Below are positions 12,658 through 64,000 of a stretch of 64,000 bases of DNA, piece by piece. The notes beneath the pieces are model-generated. The model saw only the letters and a program-made list of their open reading frames with translations. It did no database searches and was not told where the DNA came from. Every line of letters starts with the position of its first letter. Position 1 is the stretch's first letter. The stretch is from a virus (taxonomy: Duplodnaviria > Caudoviricetes): IMG/VR virus record IMGVR_UViG_3300047160_036266, positions 64,001 to 128,000 of that record; one strand, given 5' to 3'. Position numbers and translations under genes: made by a program.

Positions 12658-13215
12658 TCAGCATGATACCAAATAGTCATACTCGGACAAAGAGACTTGC
12701 CCACTTCTTAGCGGTTTTTCGCGCGTTATACGCTTCCCCATCGACCGCTGCGCATTCCAAATTATTTGTTTACAGTAAGTACCAAACTTGGTGTCGAGCT
12801 TGAGTCGTTGACGGCGGGAAGGTCGGAGGGTCTTCGGAACGATATTCCTCATGATGAGTCTTAGCAGACGTTCTTGGTGCCGACCGAATTTCTGGCGGTT
12901 GGCCCCGTGCCTGGTCCTATTGTCCCACAAGTGTTGCAGTTCACCCAGGACGTGAACGAGGAAGGGATCAATGGCGAACTGCCTGCACACTTCCAAAGAG
13001 CGTTCGATATAAACCTGACGCTTGAAGTAGGAGCCGGCCCGGATGACCGAGAACAGTAGCTCCTGCTGGAAATCGTCTATGTCGTTCTGGTGATTGTTCT
13101 TGGTGTTCTTGCGGGAGAGTTGCCAGGCGGCGTAATAGCAAAGTTGACCAAAAGCCTTCTCCAGTTCCCTGAACTCTTCTTCAAGAATCGGGAACGTCTC
13201 CATTATTGTTTTCAT
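12658..13215 (-). CDS. sigma-70 region-2-like protein
   Basis: DIDDFQQELLFSVIRA resembles region 2.2; KFGTYCKQIIWNA resembles KFSTYATWWIRQA of region 2.3-2.4. Confidence 0.5.
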   Translation of the reverse strand: MKTIMETFPILEEEFRELEKAFGQLCYYAAWQLSRKNTKNNHQNDIDDFQQELLFSVIRAGSYFKRQVYIERSLEVCRQFAIDPFLVHVLGELQHLWDNRTRHGANRQKFGRHQERLLRLIMRNIVPKTLRPSRRQRLKLDTKFGTYCKQIIWNAQRSMGKRITREKPLRSGQVSLSEYDYLVSC

Positions 13216-33985: not shown

Positions 33986-34336
33986 TTAGCTGGTTGCTGA
34001 GTCTTCGGGAGGGGCCTTATCACCCGGCTGCGGCCCCGAACCATCCTGGGTACTTTTCGACAGCACATCCTTCCCTCCTTTGAGTATGTGGCTGGGATAG
34101 CTTATATAGCCGTCCATGCCCTCTTCTTGCTTCTTCTTCTCGTCGTACTCGAAGAAGGAGGAGTAGTTGTCGTTGATGATGACCTCCAGATCGTGGTGGT
34201 CGATGTAATAATCCTTGTATTTGCGGCGGTCCAGTGGGTCGTAGATGCGGAAGAACAACTGGCCGTCCACACCCCGGAGGAGGAAACCCTTGACGTGGTG
34301 GGCCGGCGTTTCATTGGGCTGGAGGGGTCTTGCCAT
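33986..34336 (-). CDS. hypothetical protein
   Basis: co-directional ORF. Confidence 0.55.
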   Translation of the reverse strand: MARPLQPNETPAHHVKGFLLRGVDGQLFFRIYDPLDRRKYKDYYIDHHDLEVIINDNYSSFFEYDEKKKQEEGMDGYISYPSHILKGGKDVLSKSTQDGSGPQPGDKAPPEDSATS

Positions 34337-35699
34337 GTGACATCACCTTTGGTTCGATTAGGGTTCCAGGCATGAAAATACCCATGTATTCACGCATGTC
34401 GTCGTAGATCGCCCGTAGCGTCCCCGTCATGGGATTCTTCTTGCACTCCTCAATGTGGACATCGCAGAAGTGGTGCCAGAAGAATGTGAAAAGCAGAAAA
34501 CCTGCCTCCGTCCAGTCATATTCCTCGAAGGCGGCGTTAATGCGCTTCTTAAAGTCCAGCCACTCATTCCAGACCGCCTCATTCTTGCCATCGTCAGTCT
34601 GCAAGTCCAAGAAACGCTTGGCGTTGCGCCACTTATTGACGCAGCGCTTGCCATATTCCATGACGACGGGGTTGATGCGGGCGTCGGACCCGACCTGGGG
34701 TTGTGCGGCCCAATAGCGGACGCCATCCGAAGTATGCTGGTCCATATACTTGCCAGGAGGGACGAAGTTGCCAGCCGTCTTGGAAATCTTCTTCCCTTTA
34801 TCGTCCAGAGCGTGCCCGCAGATCACTATGGTTCGCCACGGTATCTGGTCGTTGTGAAGGACGCTTTTGATGATTGTGAAGAGCGCCCAGGTGCGGATAA
34901 TGTCGTGCGCTTGGAAACGAACGTCGAAGATTGGGCATTTGAGAGTGAGTTCGTACTGGTTGGCCTCGTGCCAGGCTAGTTGCGGCGACAGGCTGGACGT
35001 GTGCCAGGTGTCAAAAACGATACCCGGCTCGCCGGGGATGGGGATGCCGTAGTTCCGTTCCCGGCTGATAGACCAGTCCGAATCGCACTGATCCAGCCAG
35101 GAGAGGAGGCGGCCCTTGTACATCTCCGGCTTCCAAACGATCTGGTCAATGGCGGCACGGATGCGGGGCAGGTTGTCGAGGACTTTGATGAACCAACCCT
35201 CACCCCGGCGAAGCTCGACCTTAGCACCACTGCGCTCGTAGCAACCGTCTTCGGTCAACTCATTTTGGGAGACGGAAACCTTGGTGAGCGGGCAGTAGTA
35301 GTATTCCCGCTCGGCCTTATACGCCTGGCCCTTGTCCACCAAGTCCTTGAAGGACAGTTCGGCCAGTTTGATGGCGAAGGGGCAGAAGGTGGTGTAGTGG
35401 TGCCAGGACCAGGCCATTGCCAGGCGCATGAAGAGAAGGTGGTAAGCGATGGACTCGTGGTAGGAAAAGTCAATGATCTTGTCCTGGTCGGTGATTCCAG
35501 CGGCCTGGGCGAGCTTTTCGGTGGGCAACCCGTTGTTGTCGTAGCAATAGGGGTAGACTAGGTATTCGCCCTTGATGTGGCGGTGGTAACGGGCAATGAA
35601 GTCCATTTGGGCGTAGCTGAAGACGTGCCCCATGTGGAGGTTGCCGCTAATCGTAGGCGGCGGACAGTCGATGAGAAAGCGTTTGTTCTTGTCGTGCAT
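34311..35699 (-). CDS. valS: minimal valyl-tRNA synthetase (462 aa, no CP1 editing domain, no coiled coil)
   Basis: PPPTISGNLHMGH, DNNGLPTE, DWSISRERNYGIPIP, FDTWHTSS, FQAHDIIRTW, KISKT, FFWHHFCDVHIE. Confidence 0.9.
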   Translation of the reverse strand: MHDKNKRFLIDCPPPTISGNLHMGHVFSYAQMDFIARYHRHIKGEYLVYPYCYDNNGLPTEKLAQAAGITDQDKIIDFSYHESIAYHLLFMRLAMAWSWHHYTTFCPFAIKLAELSFKDLVDKGQAYKAEREYYYCPLTKVSVSQNELTEDGCYERSGAKVELRRGEGWFIKVLDNLPRIRAAIDQIVWKPEMYKGRLLSWLDQCDSDWSISRERNYGIPIPGEPGIVFDTWHTSSLSPQLAWHEANQYELTLKCPIFDVRFQAHDIIRTWALFTIIKSVLHNDQIPWRTIVICGHALDDKGKKISKTAGNFVPPGKYMDQHTSDGVRYWAAQPQVGSDARINPVVMEYGKRCVNKWRNAKRFLDLQTDDGKNEAVWNEWLDFKKRINAAFEEYDWTEAGFLLFTFFWHHFCDVHIEECKKNPMTGTLRAIYDDMREYMGIFMPGTLIEPKVMSHGKTPPAQ

Positions 35700-35857
35700 G
35701 GTGGGTTTGTCCGGTGAGAGAGCGTGTGGAAACGACGGGGCCACGCTCCTCCACGGAGACGCAGCCCGAAGCCACGCCCACACGGACAACAAAACTAGCC
35801 GCAAGAACGGTCATGTAGGTATTATACGTCAGTGTCGCTCAAAACGCTACCCGAAAA

Positions 35858-35952
35858 TGCCCAGGGCGGGACTCGAACCCGCACGGGAGTTACCTCCCAC
35901 GGGATTTTAAGCCGACTTAAATCCCGTGTGTCTACCATTCCACCACCTGGGC
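35858..35952 (-). tRNA. tRNA-Leu(UAA) with 10-nt insertion in anticodon loop
   Basis: GCCCAGG/CCUGGGC acceptor, GGUA D-loop, long variable arm, UUCGAGU T-loop; anticodon loop is 17 nt UUUAAGUCGGCUUAAAA. Confidence 0.9.
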
Positions 35953-38366: not shown

Positions 38367-38381
38367 AGCAGTTCCTTAATA

Positions 38382-38628
38382 GGTAGCACACTCCCGTAAG
38401 CAGGATTCTGTTCTATGCCATCATTTATCTCACAGGCCGTGGTGGGCCTGCGGCCTTGCGGCTGCACCTACCAGACCCGTTGCCCTGCTCACCGGCTGGG
38501 TCTATTTGGTTTGCACCCTCCGGGGTGGTAGCGATACTGAGCCTTGCGGCTGTTCTCTCCCCCGTTAAGCAGTGGTGTCCTGACTTTCCTCTATCCCTTG
38601 CGGGACAGCGATGGCTCGGAGCGCTACC
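38382..38628 (-). ncRNA. rnpB: RNase P RNA, minimal (reduced S-domain)
   Basis: minus strand: P1 GGUAGC/GCUACC; P2 GCCAUC/GAUGGC; P3 GCAA tetraloop; CR I GAGGAAAGUCAGGA; AAAUAG; CR IV AGAUAAAUGAU; CR V AACAGAAUCCUGCUUA with compensatory P4 pairing CAGGA/UCCUG. Confidence 0.92.
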
Positions 38629-41221: not shown

Positions 41222-41305
41222 TGCCCCCGCCAGGACTCGAACCCGGACTCCCGTTACAGGAACTTGGGCCTAAGCCAAGCGCGTCTACCCTTTCGCCACG
41301 GGGGC
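41222..41305 (-). tRNA. tRNA-Leu(UAG)
   Basis: GCCCCCG acceptor, CUUGG-CUUAGGC-CCAAG anticodon arm, long variable arm, GGUUCGAGUCC. Confidence 0.95.
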
Positions 41306-48866: not shown

Positions 48867-50150
48867 TTATACCGGCTTCCTGTCGGGCTGTAAAGCGATT
48901 CCGGGCGCGAAGCAGCGCAGCATGGGTAGCAGGGCTTCGACCGTCTGGGCGGAAGGTTTCTGCCCCTTATTCTTGTTGTAAAACTCCATGAGGGTCGAGA
49001 CAACCTTGTTGACCTTCCAACTACGCATGTAGTGATGGAGATTGGCGTGCAGGTCGGTGAGGTCGATGTCGTCTTGTCCCGGTTCGGCCAGCCAGCGGCG
49101 CAGTCGGCCCAGGAACCGGCGGATACCCGTAATGGCCTTATCATCCCAATCGCCGCCGTCCTGGTATGGCCCCAGGAACATGAGGTAGAGGCGCAGTTCA
49201 TCCGGGTCGTAGGCGTCCGGGTTGACGGCGTTGCCCTTGCTCTTCCCCATCTTGGCCCCGCCCGCCGTAATCATACCCTGGTGGATCACCTGTTTGAACG
49301 GTTCCTCCTCTTGCACGATCCCCTGGTCGTAGAGGAACATATTGATGAAGCGGGCGTAAATCAGGTGCATACAGGCGTGTTCCGGCCCGCCTACATACAG
49401 GTCCACTTGCTGATATTTCTCCGGGTGCAGGAACGTGTCCGAATCGTTTTCAAGATACCGGAGGAAATAAAAGCTGGAATCCACGAAGGTGTCCAGCGTG
49501 TCGGTTTCGCCCTCGACGGGGATCGGACAGCCCCAGCGGCGCTGGCGGGAAACGCACCAGTCGTGCAGGTTCTCCAGCCAGGCCCGCTGCTGGTTGAGGG
49601 TGCCGATGGGGTAGTCGATCTTGTCCAGGTTGGCGATCAGGCGGTCCTTGTAAGCCGTGGTGCGGAAGAACCACTGGTTGAGCGACCGCTGTTCAATCTT
49701 GGCCTGGCAGCGCTCGCAAAAGCCGCCGCCACACTGCTCTTTGGCCAGTACGGTGTCGCAGGACGGGCAGTAGTTGACGGGACCGAAGGCTTTGTAGGCC
49801 AGGCCGTTCTCGCGCAGCAGGGTAAAGAGCCATTGCGTCCATTTGATGTAGGATGGGTCGCACGTCACCAGTTTTTCCTGGTACACCGTGTTCATGTGTC
49901 GCATCTGGCCCCGGAAGCGTTCGATGTTGGCCCAGGTAACGGTGGCCGGGTCGCCGCCGATGGAACGGGCGTAGTTCTCGGCGGGCAGGCCGAAAGCGTC
50001 GTAGCCAAAGGGCTGGAAGACCTCGATGCCCAGGTAGCGCAGCCACCGGCAGTACGAGTCCACGATGGCGTAGTTGTAGTAGTGCCCCAGGTGCAGGCCG
50101 GCACCGGAGGGATACGGGAACATGACGCAGCAGTAGAATGGCTTGCTCAT
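48867..50150 (-). CDS. leuS: minimal leucyl-tRNA synthetase (427 aa; no CP1, no LS domain, no C-terminal domain)
   Basis: MFPYPSGAGLHLGH, GYDAFGLPAEN, QWFF, DWCVSRQRRWGCPIP, DTLDTFVDSSFYFLRY, YVGGPEHACMHLIYARF, KMGKSKGN. Confidence 0.95.
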   Translation of the reverse strand: MSKPFYCCVMFPYPSGAGLHLGHYYNYAIVDSYCRWLRYLGIEVFQPFGYDAFGLPAENYARSIGGDPATVTWANIERFRGQMRHMNTVYQEKLVTCDPSYIKWTQWLFTLLRENGLAYKAFGPVNYCPSCDTVLAKEQCGGGFCERCQAKIEQRSLNQWFFRTTAYKDRLIANLDKIDYPIGTLNQQRAWLENLHDWCVSRQRRWGCPIPVEGETDTLDTFVDSSFYFLRYLENDSDTFLHPEKYQQVDLYVGGPEHACMHLIYARFINMFLYDQGIVQEEEPFKQVIHQGMITAGGAKMGKSKGNAVNPDAYDPDELRLYLMFLGPYQDGGDWDDKAITGIRRFLGRLRRWLAEPGQDDIDLTDLHANLHHYMRSWKVNKVVSTLMEFYNKNKGQKPSAQTVEALLPMLRCFAPGIALQPDRKPV

Positions 50151-58015: not shown

Positions 58016-58099
58016 TGCCAGGGGAGGGAGTCGAACCCTCACGGGATTTCTCCCACCAGATTTTGAGTCTGGCGTGGCTGCCGATTACACCACCCTGGC
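58016..58099 (-). tRNA. tRNA-Leu(CAA)
   Basis: GCCAGGG acceptor, CCAGA-CUCAAAA-UCUGG, long variable arm, GGUUCGACUCC. Confidence 0.95.
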
Positions 58100-58612: not shown

Positions 58613-58695
58613 TGCCCAGGGTGGGAGTTGAACCCACACGCCCTTACGGGCACACGGCCCTGAACCGTGCGTGGCTGCCATTACACCACCTGGGC
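58613..58695 (-). tRNA. tRNA-Leu(CAG)
   Basis: GCCCAGG acceptor, CACGG-UUCAGGG-CCGUG, long variable arm, GGUUCAACUCC. Confidence 0.95.
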
Positions 58696-58707: not shown

Positions 58708-60357
58708 CTATCCTGCGGCGAGCGGGAGCGATACCCTTCCTGCCGGCTTTTGTTGCTGTTGCGCCTGACGCTTCTTGACATAATCACTAAAACTCGTCGG
58801 CGGCTGGGCAATGTCAAGGTCTTTGTCGAGGTACTGGCTGGCCAACTGGATGAACCTTTGATGCCATCGCTCATGCACCTGCGGGTCCGTATGGAACGAC
58901 TTTTTAATCTGGTTCTCGTCCCGGTCGGCATCGGACGCCACATGAATGTCGTTCTTCAACTCCGTGTCATCATATATCGCCAGGCTGTAAATGTTCAAGT
59001 GGCTGATGATGTCCTTGTTCTCCAACAACCAGTTGTAGGTTTTTCGGTAGGTTTCTTCTGTCTCATCAGGAAAGCCCACGATGATGTTCGGTATCAACCA
59101 GACATTGCCGCCCTCCTGGCGAATTTGCCGTATTTTCGTCGCTGCCAGGTCGATGCTCTTCTCCGTGGCCGGCTTCTTCTGGCTTTTGAGGATGAAGTCG
59201 TTATACGACTCAATCCCCAACTCAATGAACCGTATCCCCGCCTCCTTGATAAACTCGTTGGGCAGCCGCTTACTGGCCATCGTGGAAGCCGTTGTCTGGA
59301 CCACAAACCCCTGGAAATTGGGGTTGCGTTTCTTAATCTCCCAATAGATTTCCGGCAGGAGAGTGTAGTTGTTGGCCTGGCCGAAGGTCTTGTCGTTAAT
59401 GTATACCAGCTTGGACTTTAGCTGGGACAGCGCCTTGGCCTCCTGCTCGATGGTTTCGGTCGGGACTTCCTCCAGCTTGCGCGACACGTCGCAGAATTTG
59501 CACTTGTGGCGACAACCGCTGCTCATACACAGCCTGGGGATGACCGCCGTTCCTCTGAAGAGGTTATAATCGGTGCCGCCCTCCATCCCGCCTTTCTTGT
59601 GCTTTTGTTCGAGGATGAAGTCCTGCATACTGTTGAACACATGCACGTTTTTGAACGGGGCGAATTCTTCCGCCAGGTTGGTGCTGTAGCCGCCCACGGC
59701 AATGGCCCCTGGATAGCTCTGCGCAATGCGCTTAACCTGGGGCAGCACCACGTCCATGACCGAGAAGATGACCTCCTTATATTTCGCCTGGTTGAAGAAC
59801 TGGATCGCTTCGTTCACGTCCCGGACAACGTAAAAGTCAACATTGTTGAGGTTGCGGGAGATGACGGCGACCCAATATGGTACTTCCCAGAAGTCCTCTG
59901 GCTTCTCGTAACCCTGCCGCTTGGCGTACAGCTTCTCGTAATATTCGTCGGCGTAGTTGGGCTTGTGGGTGTACAAGGTCTTGGCGGCGAACTGACAGGC
60001 CAGGATTCGGTCATGGTTGTTAGGGTCCGCCGAGTGTTTCACCCAAATATTTTTTGTCTCTCTGGCTGGGTCGGCGGCTCCGTGTTGGTAATACGGATAG
60101 GCGGTCCCGTAGGGTGTTTTGTCCTTGAAGGAGGCTGGGGCCTGGTGGCCTAGTTCATCGCTCAGGTCGTGGATGTAGCGGTTGAAAACCGGGTCGTTGT
60201 AATCGGGTGCCTGGCCCTGCTGCCGCTCCAACTCGATGATCTTACGCAGATGCCCTTGGTAGAAGGCATCCGGTTTGCCGGGGAAATAACGCTGGAGGCG
60301 GGCCAGATAGTCGTCAGCTTTGGACTCAATGCTTTCGAGAAACCTACGGAAGCGCAT
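58708..60357 (-). CDS. radical SAM protein (B12-binding class B-like architecture) with N-terminal extension
   Basis: SSGCRHKCKFC (CxxxCxFC), YINDKTF, ELGIES, IIVGFPDET; upstream alpha/beta domain with AVGG. Confidence 0.8.
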   Translation of the reverse strand: MRFRRFLESIESKADDYLARLQRYFPGKPDAFYQGHLRKIIELERQQGQAPDYNDPVFNRYIHDLSDELGHQAPASFKDKTPYGTAYPYYQHGAADPARETKNIWVKHSADPNNHDRILACQFAAKTLYTHKPNYADEYYEKLYAKRQGYEKPEDFWEVPYWVAVISRNLNNVDFYVVRDVNEAIQFFNQAKYKEVIFSVMDVVLPQVKRIAQSYPGAIAVGGYSTNLAEEFAPFKNVHVFNSMQDFILEQKHKKGGMEGGTDYNLFRGTAVIPRLCMSSGCRHKCKFCDVSRKLEEVPTETIEQEAKALSQLKSKLVYINDKTFGQANNYTLLPEIYWEIKKRNPNFQGFVVQTTASTMASKRLPNEFIKEAGIRFIELGIESYNDFILKSQKKPATEKSIDLAATKIRQIRQEGGNVWLIPNIIVGFPDETEETYRKTYNWLLENKDIISHLNIYSLAIYDDTELKNDIHVASDADRDENQIKKSFHTDPQVHERWHQRFIQLASQYLDKDLDIAQPPTSFSDYVKKRQAQQQQKPAGRVSLPLAAG

Positions 60358-62651: not shown

Positions 62652-62725
62652 TAGCACGGGTGGGAATTGCACCCACGGCATCTCAGTTTTTGAAACTAAG
62701 TGGTCTACTGTCTGCCTACCGTGCC
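62652..62725 (-). tRNA. non-canonical 74-nt tRNA, anticodon CAA (Leu codon UUG)
   Basis: GGCACGG/CCGUGCU-A; 6-bp stem CUUAGU/ACUGAG, loop UUCAAAA; T-arm GUGGG-UGCAAUU-CCCAC. Confidence 0.8.
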
Positions 62726-62728
62726 ATA

Positions 62729-62841
62729 TCCCGTGACAGGAGCATTGCGGTTTTGCGGCTGCGCCGCCTTTACCCCGCTCGCATTAGCCCCATGTCACCT
62801 GCATCCCGATGCGAGCCGTTATGACAGGTCGAGTCACGGGA
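62729..62841 (-). ncRNA. candidate structured RNA inside tRNA array
   Basis: 9-bp terminal helix UCCCGUGAC/GUCACGGGA, internal helices and 8-bp GCUCGCAU/AUGCGAGC pairing; abuts tRNAs on both sides. Confidence 0.55.
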
Positions 62842-62843
62842 AG

Positions 62844-62917
62844 TGCCCAGGGCCGGAGTTGCACCGGCGGCATCACTGGTTCTAAGCCAATGTGGTCTGC
62901 TGTCTGCCTACCTGGGC
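62844..62917 (-). tRNA. non-canonical 74-nt tRNA, anticodon UAG (Leu codon CUA)
   Basis: GCCCAGG/CCUGGGC-A; CAUUGG-CUUAGAA-CCAGUG; GCCGG-UGCAACU-CCGGC. Confidence 0.82.
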
Positions 62918-62920
62918 AAG

Positions 62921-62994
62921 TGGCACGGGTGGGAATTGCACCCACGGCATCGCTGGCTCTCGACCAACGTGGTCTACTGTCTGCCTACCGTGCC
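62921..62994 (-). tRNA. non-canonical 74-nt tRNA, anticodon GAG (Leu codons CUC/U), C33
   Basis: GGCACGG/CCGUGCC-A; CGUUGG-UCGAGAG-CCAGCG; GUGGG-UGCAAUU-CCCAC. Confidence 0.8.
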
Positions 62995-62998
62995 ATAG

Positions 62999-63072
62999 TG
63001 CCCAGGGTGGGAGTTGCACCCACGGCATCAGAGGTTCTGGACCTCTGTGGTCTGCTGTCTGCCTACCTGGGC
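62999..63072 (-). tRNA. non-canonical 74-nt tRNA, anticodon CAG (Leu codon CUG), C33
   Basis: GCCCAGG/CCUGGGC-A; CAGAGG-UCCAGAA-CCUCUG; GUGGG-UGCAACU-CCCAC. Confidence 0.8.
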
Positions 63073-63075
63073 CTG

Positions 63076-63423
63076 TTATTGAAGTCGATCTCGGATACTT
63101 TCAAACCACTGGATGAACTTTTCTTTGTTTGGATGTTGCCCTTGCGACACAACCTCCACCGCACGGTCCAGGGCGTAGTGCATATTGCCGATTAGGTCGT
63201 TGAGCCATCGACCCTTGGGGATTGCCGATCTGAGCGCCTTGGCGTCCGCCGGCAAGTGCTGGGCATAAGCCTGCATATTGTGCAGGAGGTTTCCGCCCAT
63301 GTCCCAGCGCCCTTTTAACATTTCCTGCGCTAACCGACCCAGCTTCGTGGTGTTGACCAGGGCATTGGTGACTATCTCTTGGGCTACGTCAGCGGCCTCC
63401 AGCCATTGTCGGAAGGTACTCAT
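63076..63423 (-). CDS. hypothetical protein, probable virion-internal
   Basis: N-terminus MSTFRQWLEAAD. Confidence 0.6.
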   Translation of the reverse strand: MSTFRQWLEAADVAQEIVTNALVNTTKLGRLAQEMLKGRWDMGGNLLHNMQAYAQHLPADAKALRSAIPKGRWLNDLIGNMHYALDRAVEVVSQGQHPNKEKFIQWFESIRDRLQ

Positions 63424-63443
63424 GGAGTTATGTAGGCTTCCCG

Positions 63444-63743
63444 CTACCAAAACGGGTCGCTGTCGGGCTTGCACTCCTCAAAGCCGCCTTCCTTGTCAAA
63501 CATCCGTTCCCACAAGGTCGCGTCCCGATATAGTTCGATGGTCCGGGCTGAACTGCAACAGTCGTGGTAATCATAAGGGTCTTGCTCGTGCAATTCGAGG
63601 TAGGTTGCCTTGTCCTCGAAGAGAATATGCGTGAGCGTCACTCGGTCCTGGCCGAAGCGGCTGACCTTCTGGCCCCGGAAGGCCACGATATTCATGCCGA
63701 TCAGGTCGGTCCACTTCGGAATGCTGGACTTTTTCTTTGCCAT
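63444..63743 (-). CDS. hypothetical protein
   Basis: GGAGGG RBS overlapping tRNA 3' flank. Confidence 0.6.
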   Translation of the reverse strand: MAKKKSSIPKWTDLIGMNIVAFRGQKVSRFGQDRVTLTHILFEDKATYLELHEQDPYDYHDCCSSARTIELYRDATLWERMFDKEGGFEECKPDSDPFW

Positions 63744-63755
63744 AATTCCCTCCAG

Positions 63756-63829
63756 TGGCACGGGCCGGACCTGCCCCGGCAGCATCACTGATTTTAAGTC
63801 GGTGTGGTCTTCTTCTTGCCTACCGTGCC
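63756..63829 (-). tRNA. non-canonical 74-nt tRNA, anticodon UAA (Leu codon UUA)
   Basis: GGCACGG/CCGUGCC-A; CACCGA-CUUAAAA-UCAGUG; GCCGG-GGCAGGU-CCGGC. Confidence 0.78.
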
Positions 63830-63833
63830 AAAA

Positions 63834-63920
63834 TGAGCAGTGGAGGAGTTGAACCACTCGGCATCCGCCCCACTTCTTTAATGCCAACAGTTTTACAGAC
63901 TGCCGTGGGGAACACCGCTC
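63834..63920 (-). tRNA. atypical tRNA-Tyr(GUA)-like RNA lacking a normal D-arm
   Basis: GAGCGGU/ACUGCUC-A acceptor; GCAGU-CUGUAAA-ACUGU; GGUUCAACUCC T-loop with weak stem. Confidence 0.5.
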
Positions 63921-64000
63921 AAATTCTTTCGATCCGAATTGACATGATTGCCCAAATGAGTTATTGTCTCCTAACTGTAGTGCGGCTGGACGGGACCGCA

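Follow-up and report, generated by a model that had tools for sequence, protein, structure and literature searches.

The textbook form of bacterial tRNA-Leu carries a long variable arm (type II). One isoacceptor of Streptomyces coelicolor, tRNA-Leu(CAA), is of type I with a 5-nt variable loop and is leucylated by the organism's own leucyl-tRNA synthetase (LeuRS), with U8:A14 mattering for charging and the elbow pairs being dispensable; the further bacterial LeuRSs that were assayed left it uncharged (Fan et al. 2019, PMC6614811). A short-loop tRNA-Leu(TAG) is present in a mycobacterial tRNA cluster (PMC6582537). Phages also have such genes: a 74-nt huge-phage type I tRNA-Leu used as query has matches in 180 cultured-phage records, and the annotations of KVP40 and Bacillus phage P59 include tRNA-Leu genes of 75 nt (plus CCA); a literature search found no paper on phage armless tRNA-Leu. 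The subject here is a second leucine set, five 74-nt minus-strand tRNA genes (mean column identity 84% in an alignment of the five), in a 64,000-nt stretch of tailed-phage DNA, the window, which is bases 64001-128000 of the single 343,421-bp contig (56% G+C) of IMG/VR virus record IMGVR_UViG_3300047160_036266. The record is ~69% complete, and the window's DNA is present in soil metagenomes of 21 studies.

Our reading, to which we give a probability of about 0.7, is that the five would be functional short-arm tRNAs for leucine that read all six leucine codons, every one of which is used in the phage's open reading frames, and that they derive, within this lineage, from a widespread armless format of phages. 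Comparison of the sequences makes them real tRNA genes under selection, and it is almost certain, as a prediction, that they decode. The genes are as follows, R1 being a covariance model built from these five.

62652-62725, minus strand: type I tRNA-Leu CAA; reported by ARAGORN; Rfam 37.0 bits, R1 95.3 bits
62844-62917, minus strand: type I tRNA-Leu UAG; reported by ARAGORN; Rfam 36.1 bits
62921-62994, minus strand: type I tRNA-Leu GAG, with C33; missed by ARAGORN; Rfam 31.3 bits, R1 97.9 bits
62999-63072, minus strand: type I tRNA-Leu CAG, with C33; reported by ARAGORN; Rfam 34.0 bits
63756-63829, minus strand: type I tRNA-Leu UAA, with T-loop GGCAGGU; R1 89.3 bits

The original prediction, made from the letters of the window, had described these genes with their anticodons, positions and strand, and all five are there, as is the layout it gave them: a 7-bp acceptor stem with A73, U8/A9, a 15-nt D region GGCA..AG.AGACC, a 6-bp anticodon stem with a 7-nt loop, a 5-nt variable region AUGC(C/U), and T-loops UGCAAYU or GGCAGGU. 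It had further expected that tRNA finders would give low scores or none. The UAA gene is reported neither by ARAGORN nor by the Rfam tRNA model; ARAGORN calls three of the five (CAA, UAG, CAG) tRNA-Leu, and the Rfam model RF00005, run with permissive filters, places four at 31.3-37.0 bits with the gathering score at 29. An nhmmer profile of the five finds exactly 5 copies in the 343,421-bp genome. Spacers in the array are of 3-4 nt.

Copies elsewhere were sought with a pattern taken from the invariant D region and the variable loop, which found eight soil metagenome contigs, and a search with R1 gives 29 further copies in these, 34 in total, at 59-98 bits, the lowest score being that of a copy cut by a contig end. 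A leucine anticodon is present in all 34, and in four copies in an IMG/VR huge phage, G016; A73 is invariant and the variable region is of 5 nt throughout the 34. On the 23 distinct sequences, 90.6% of the cells to be paired are paired. Covariation scores 0.597, where shuffles give 0.177 and none of 500 reaches the real value, and sliding the pairing partners destroys the signal. Double-sided changes affect 13 pairs (4 in the acceptor, all 6 in the anticodon stem and 3 in the T stem), these three stems being 97.8-100% paired; the D stem has just 2 invariant G-C pairs. Among the closest relatives the stem differences are compensatory doubles only. The CAA gene has identical copies in two contigs (L004 and L007), the UAG gene differs from its L007 orthologue by the compensatory change G6:C67 to A6:U67, and the UAA gene, which has a conserved C.A mismatch within its anticodon stem, has in the L007 copy a compensatory A:U to G:C change in that stem. 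A covariance-model search of metagenomes had been put forward as a check, and both anticodon conservation and stem covariation come through it; the argument that the anticodon set is under selection for decoding is likewise supported, the set being conserved across diverged phages with leucine anticodons only and with stems that covary. Outside these phages the scaffold has not been met: an exact-pattern scan of viral contigs gave one chance match, inside a coding region, blastn of the region against 50,697 phage records gave no match for the GUAGGCA scaffold, and a pattern scan of 185,579 species genomes gave only a conserved coding stretch in four Thermoplasmata metagenome-assembled genomes and no covariance-model match, so that at that stringency no cellular copy of the scaffold was found.

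How such an RNA would fold can be followed position by position. Directly following GGCA is a base (G or A) in perfect covariation with the C or U that ends the variable loop, GC in 12 and AU in 11; it is therefore one partner of the Levitt 15:48 pair, which fixes the numbering as U8, A9, G10, G11, C12, A14, R15. The D stem is thus G10-C25 and G11-C24 with an invariant C12.A23 and no 13:22 pair. Bases 26 and 44 change jointly, A/A to G/G, in one lineage. The sixth, outermost pair of the anticodon stem is C-G, G-C or U-A in different copies, so the extension of that stem is genuine, and the 3 D-stem layers, 26.44 and 6 anticodon-stem pairs count up to ten, as in the canonical 4+1+5 tRNA; since ten stacked layers are kept, the pair added to the anticodon stem makes up for the shortening of the D stem. 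A D/anticodon helix of some ten stacked layers would give an L shape of normal dimensions, in which the tertiary core (U8/A14, R15:Y48, G19:C56, U54:A58) would be kept and the G18:U55 contact would become A18:G55. Across the five genes U8, A14, 15:48, G19 and C56 are all kept, with U54:A58 in four and U33 in three.

tRNA-Pyl is defined by a one-base connector between acceptor and D stem, a 3-nt variable loop and the anticodon CUA. There are likenesses to it in the 6-bp anticodon stem, all six pairs of which covary here, in the small D loop without GG and in a T-loop that is not TPsiC, and the original prediction had on this account framed the five as orthogonal tRNAs of a tRNA-Pyl kind. That framing is contradicted by the two connector bases (U8, A9), the 5-nt variable loop, A73, the leucine anticodons, and the G19:C56 and Levitt pairs, and membership of tRNA-Pyl is rejected.

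The elbow deserves closer attention. The D loop has an invariant AG at the usual GG site and C56 is invariant in the type I scaffold, so G19:C56 is retained and only 18:55 differs. The original prediction of a D loop without GG and an altered T-loop is correct as far as the letters go, AG having replaced GG, and incorrect as to loss, the elbow being kept through G19:C56 with 18:55 swapped; an 'elbow-less' reading is rejected, since 18:55 covaries. In G016 the scaffold GUAGGCA..GGUAGACCAC, with 6-bp anticodon stem and GAUGCU, has a canonical GG D loop and a UUCGA T-loop; in the window's clade, therefore, A has replaced G18 and G has replaced U55 as a joint change. Nor is this peculiar to leucine: in huge phages the swap is seen in Leu, in two Phe families, in one Trp and in one Met tRNA, and tRNA-Phe orthologues are split by their elbow (AG/UGC at L001:8227, GG/UUC at L003:2051). 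Sites with D loop ..AG.. and T-loop UGCRA include the following.

L001, 8049-8123 and 8228-8300 (genome 128049-128300): A18:G55 swap
L083, 2500-2571: A18:G55 swap
L095, about 1500-1575: A18:G55 swap

The fetched loci gave about 385 distinct tRNAs for comparison. Every one of the 24 with a UGC T-loop has a D loop without GG, and 309 with a UUC T-loop have GG; the association of G55 with AG has a Fisher p of 1e-23, uncorrected for relatedness. The window's UAA tRNA, with its GGC T-loop, also has the AG D loop. A literature search found no paper describing an A18:G55 elbow.

Leucine identity is read from A73, the leucine anticodons, a leucine-like D arm, A15:U48, and an acceptor stem and T arm held in common with a gene of the window's other leucine set, which is of type II.

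58016-58099, minus strand: canonical type II tRNA-Leu CAA
58317-58400, minus strand: canonical type II tRNA-Leu GAG
58613-58695, minus strand: canonical type II tRNA-Leu CAG (these three reported by ARAGORN and by Rfam at 46-55 bits)
41222-41305, minus strand: tRNA-Leu UAG, found as a type II gene in the window
35858-35952, minus strand: type II tRNA-Leu of 95 nt, anticodon read as AAG by ARAGORN

With five genes of each type in the window there are two parallel leucine tRNA sets. The acceptor stem and T arm of type I CAG are identical to those of type II CAG (58613-58695) save for U55G; A15:U48 is found in older lineages of the scaffold, and the 3' half of the D arm, GUAGAC, resembles that of bacterial tRNA-Leu. 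The five have the structural traits of a type I tRNA-Leu, namely a 4-5-nt variable loop, leucine anticodon, A73 and leucine-like D arm. With the bacterial type II form they have in common A73 and the anticodons CAA, UAA, UAG, GAG and CAG, and they lack its long variable arm (a hairpin of >10 nt), the region being 5 nt in 34 of 34. Across huge-phage loci 54 leucine tRNAs are short and 57 long, with A73 in 52 of the 54 short ones, while none of 25 serine and one of 8 tyrosine tRNAs is short; serine and tyrosine having kept their arms and leucine being split, the loss of the arm is specific to leucine.

Could such tRNAs carry another amino acid? It had been suggested that they might be charged with, for instance, valine in a deliberate mistranslation of leucine codons, and the phage does encode a candidate enzyme.

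34311-35804, minus strand: ValRS-like class Ia synthetase of 497 aa without a CP1 editing domain

That this editing-domain-less enzyme comes without any phage tRNA-Val gene, and that A35 and A73 are common to valine identity, speak for the suggestion. Position 36, however, is G or A and never the C36 of valine identity, nothing ties the ValRS-like enzyme to the type I tRNAs, in relatives the scaffold clusters with the LeuRS gene and not with the ValRS gene, and recoding six leucine codons across a proteome would be very costly; adding the acceptor stem and T arm common with the phage's own type II tRNA-Leu and the leucine-like GUAGAC and A15:U48, we regard such mischarging as extremely improbable. 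Beside this synthetase gene lies the 95-nt type II gene, which looks like a UAA tRNA with a 10-nt insertion in its anticodon loop: the loop is of 17 nt, and cutting the 10-nt insert, flanked by UUAA repeats, restores a UAA loop.

As to novelty, armless tRNA-Leu is common in phages and the window's set is an unusual variant of it and no new class. A match to a described class had been named as something that would count against the original prediction, and it holds for the short-arm type I format, already known, and not for the sub-scaffold and elbow. What on sequence comparison is particular to the window's set is the GUAGGCA sub-scaffold with its 3/6 stems, the A18:G55 elbow and the complete set of five anticodons. 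The armless tRNA-Leu genes of cultured phages (KVP40 tRNA-Leu-3; P59 UAG and UAA) resemble it in the short variable loop, A73, leucine anticodons and location in tRNA arrays, and differ in that their D arm is of the GUAGCCCAAUUGGUAGAGGC type, their elbow is canonical and their isoacceptors usually number 1-3. The S. coelicolor tRNA resembles it in having a 5-nt variable loop in place of the long arm, yet is a single isoacceptor with canonical G18G19/U55C56, whereas the window has five isoacceptors with A18:G55, a 6-bp anticodon stem, a D stem of 2 Watson-Crick pairs plus C.A, and a LeuRS of the phage's own.

48867-50150, minus strand: mini-LeuRS of 427 aa, with a bacterial LeuRS core (TIGR00396, 380 bits)

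In an alignment with Thermus thermophilus LeuRS (1h3n), nothing in this enzyme corresponds to residues 229-417 (CP1) or 580-635 (LSD), and the match stops near residue 700 of 878; the enzyme is thus without CP1, LSD and the C-terminal domain. Invariant in the family are HIGH and KMSKS, four zinc cysteines and the peptide DW.VSRQR.WG, and it is this peptide that holds A73 in E. coli LeuRS (PMC6614811). An AF2 model (pLDDT 85.6) finds its best fold match in Mycoplasma mobile LeuRS (3ziu, TMq 0.88), which is naturally CP1-less, with an LSD cut to a tetrapeptide (PMC3643597). At 637 aa the mycoplasmal enzyme is longer than the phage's 427 aa, which are without the C-terminal tRNA-binding domain and the greater part of the anticodon-binding bundle as well. 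The family is large, with >7,700 homologues at E 1e-10 or better, the best-scoring 120 of which are of 383-541 aa (most about 420) and 64-88% identical; IMG/VR phages as large as 607 kb have members of it, as does the 635-kb record LR745206. By tblastn no cultured-phage homologue exceeds 42% identity, KVP40 and Bacillus phage P59 not being among the matches listed, and a literature search found no paper on a phage mini-LeuRS. In one 105-kb Logan contig (L024, 3554-4729) a full EF-Tu homologue (GTP_EFTU, D2, D3) directly follows the mini-LeuRS gene, and there a type II tRNA-Leu(GAG) starts at the LeuRS stop codon.

The original prediction had linked the short tRNAs with the CP1-less LeuRS, and gene neighbourhood supports this. 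At 49 huge-phage loci leucine accounts for 48 of 115 tRNAs within 2.5 kb of the mini-LeuRS gene and for 21 of 129 at 2.5-10 kb (odds ratio 3.7, p 1.5e-5, with tRNA-Leu of both types taken together), GUAGGCA-type genes directly flank the LeuRS gene in G016, 9 of the 49 loci have type I genes no more than 2.5 kb from that gene, and the armless format of other phages also adjoins mini-LeuRS genes in huge phages. Co-occurrence, proposed as a further check, is incomplete: six of nine complete mini-LeuRS genomes carry type I tRNA-Leu, and three show none among the best model hits. About 60 records were sampled, and these were chosen through the LeuRS gene or a tRNA model, so the co-occurrence is biased.

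Several observations weigh against our reading, and those on the synthetase may be taken first. In the three complete genomes just mentioned (G011, G013, G022) the top hits of a general type I model are type II genes only; the pairing of mini-LeuRS and type I set is therefore not obligatory, an obligatory coupling is rejected, and in those three the mini-LeuRS must use long-arm tRNA-Leu too. Conversely, for the cultured phages with armless tRNA-Leu the search found no mini-LeuRS-type gene, so that host enzymes presumably charge their armless tRNAs, and the notion that short-arm tRNA-Leu requires a phage synthetase finds no support. Because the enzyme occurs without type I genes and the armless tRNA without the enzyme, we infer the acting synthetase here: it is probably the phage's own 427-aa LeuRS, and charging by a host LeuRS may be an alternative route.

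These same facts bear on a stricter version, that of an orthogonal pair in which only the phage mini-LeuRS charges the type I set, the host LeuRS cannot, and a host-independent leucylation channel results. To its credit are the failure of non-Streptomyces bacterial LeuRSs on type I tRNA-Leu (PMC6614811), the lack in the mini-LeuRS of the C-terminal domain and LSD that read elbow and arm, the flanking genes in G016 with the nine of 49 close loci, and the six of nine genomes. With armless genes in cultured phages (180 records matched; KVP40, P59) where no mini-LeuRS-type gene was found, with long-arm substrates needed in the three genomes of type II only, and with a sample biased by the choice of loci, strict orthogonality is nevertheless doubtful.

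Other observations that tell against us are in the RNAs themselves. The GAG and CAG genes have C33 at a position where U33 is nearly universal; all five have A37, and the phage's own type II readers of CUN codons have G37; the D stem holds two Watson-Crick pairs only; and the window's UAA tRNA has a G54..G58 T-loop. RNAfold favours an alternative helix of GGCA with UGCC of the variable loop, and this helix (GGCA/UGCY) may form instead, being compatible with 98.9% of alignment cells, with zero double changes; it is the co-changes at 15:48 and 18:55 that favour the L-shaped fold. On expression, no listed run is on record as RNA, and two runs labelled 'metatranscriptomic' are flagged as probably DNA, one of them yielding a contig that covers 62931-63340; a promoter and terminator scan found sites no more numerous than in shuffled sequence. 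Could the five then be non-decoding RNAs, whether decoys, regulators or decaying pseudogenes that resemble tRNAs? The weak D stem, the two C33, the low Rfam scores, the possible alternative fold and the presence of an unrelated structured RNA within the same array would all suit this idea, but there is a compensatory change in every stem, A73 and all tertiary pairs are conserved, a complete isoacceptor set is maintained across diverged phages, and decay would not keep five anticodons or produce the 18:55 co-change, so we think it very improbable.

The structured RNA in question and a second RNA that bears on maturation are these.

62726-62843, minus strand: conserved structured RNA of 118 nt, inside the type I array
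38379-38627, minus strand: phage class A RNase P RNA of about 248 nt (RF00010, 65.9 bits, E 7.8e-20)

The 118-nt RNA is 92-100% identical in five contigs (L003, L004, L005, L007, L009), type I leucine tRNAs flank every copy, and it is conserved although the neighbouring tRNAs differ among the five. It has 34 predicted pairs, 2 of them compensatory, a minimum free energy z-score of -2.5 and no Rfam match; sitting in a 'tRNA slot', it would come free through the processing that frees the tRNAs. The RNase P RNA has its specificity domain almost deleted, 105 model positions being reduced to 8. It is also in the closest relative G001 (L114, G001:43847-44093), and it is absent from nine other mini-LeuRS huge phages searched, four or five of them complete.

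At 63834-63921 on the minus strand is a long-arm tRNA-like gene with anticodon GUA, which fits the tRNA-Sec model only (29 bits), may have a 9-bp acceptor and 4-bp T stem in the manner of an allo-tRNA, and has a D-region CCCCAC that can pair with GUGGGG of the variable arm. A tmRNA is at 12849-13200 of the genome. Between the type II and type I clusters (58708-60357, minus strand) is a gene for a 549-aa radical-SAM protein of weak MiaB/RimO/MtaB-type similarity (44 bits), possibly a tRNA-modifying enzyme; searches for related loci with this protein alone or with the ValRS-like protein alone found none. The clade's tRNA repertoire consists of Leu, Ser (GGA, GCU, UGA, CGA), Tyr and Phe only (whole genome; L003, L006, L010, L112, G016).

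It is this repertoire, limited to the three long-arm families (Leu, Ser, Tyr) plus Phe, that makes attractive the thought of a back-up against host defence, in which the armless format, C33, A37 and A18:G55 would hide the tRNAs from a hypothetical host or phage activity directed at tRNAs with a long arm or at certain anticodon loops, which it would cut or block. Decoding of leucine codons would in that case outlast the attack. There is precedent of a kind, since T5-type phage tRNAs have altered loops by which they escape anticodon nucleases, MenT3 prefers tRNA-Ser and the eukaryotic SLFN11 cuts type II tRNAs. The T5-type nuclease-resistant tRNAs are, like the present ones, carried by phages, similar to host tRNAs and changed in a loop or an arm. 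Each leucine anticodon is present in two formats, and the anticodon loops have the oddities C33 and A37. Set against this, the phage keeps ordinary long-arm Leu, Ser and Tyr tRNAs, and much of the pattern can be put down to plain codon supply; evasion of defence can thus be entertained tentatively and not expected.

To return to the reading of the five as functional short-arm tRNA-Leu, their expression might proceed as follows. The type I genes would be transcribed as a polycistron, and RNase P together with 3' trimming would process the transcript. The genes encode no CCA, and the trailers of both leucine sets begin CU, except that of the 35858-35952 gene (UUUU); the phage genome has two PolyA_pol/CCA-type genes, and one of these two CCA-adding-type enzymes, or the host's, would add CCA. 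A LeuRS would charge the tRNAs with leucine by way of A73 and the acceptor and core, bacterial LeuRS making no use of the anticodon; the mini-LeuRS would be suited to this in keeping the A73-binding peptide while having lost every module that reads elbow or variable arm. The type I set would then form a second, structurally distinct channel of leucine decoding beside the type II set. An extension of this, in which mini-LeuRS and armless A18:G55 set would be a phage-private leucylation channel, closed to host LeuRS and to host enzymes or defences that read the long arm, G18 or U55, and matured by the RNase P RNA that lacks a specificity domain, is in our judgement unlikely. If true, the phage would have a small translation circuit to itself, serving the amino acid that is the most abundant.

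The tRNA that textbooks give a long arm has in this phage clade been rebuilt as a full isoacceptor set without the arm, beside the canonical set, and rebuilt with three layers in the D stem, 6 bp in the anticodon stem and an elbow whose A18:G55 pair covaries. Recurrence of A18:G55 across huge-phage tRNA families is a natural double-mutant cycle of the tRNA elbow, and the swap deprives TruB (U55) and Gm18 methylation of their substrates. The mini-LeuRS is one of the smallest natural forms of LeuRS. Should it prove that it charges armless tRNA-Leu which hosts ignore, there would be a ready-made orthogonal pair for genetic-code engineering, and the finding would bear on how huge phages insulate their translation from host defences.

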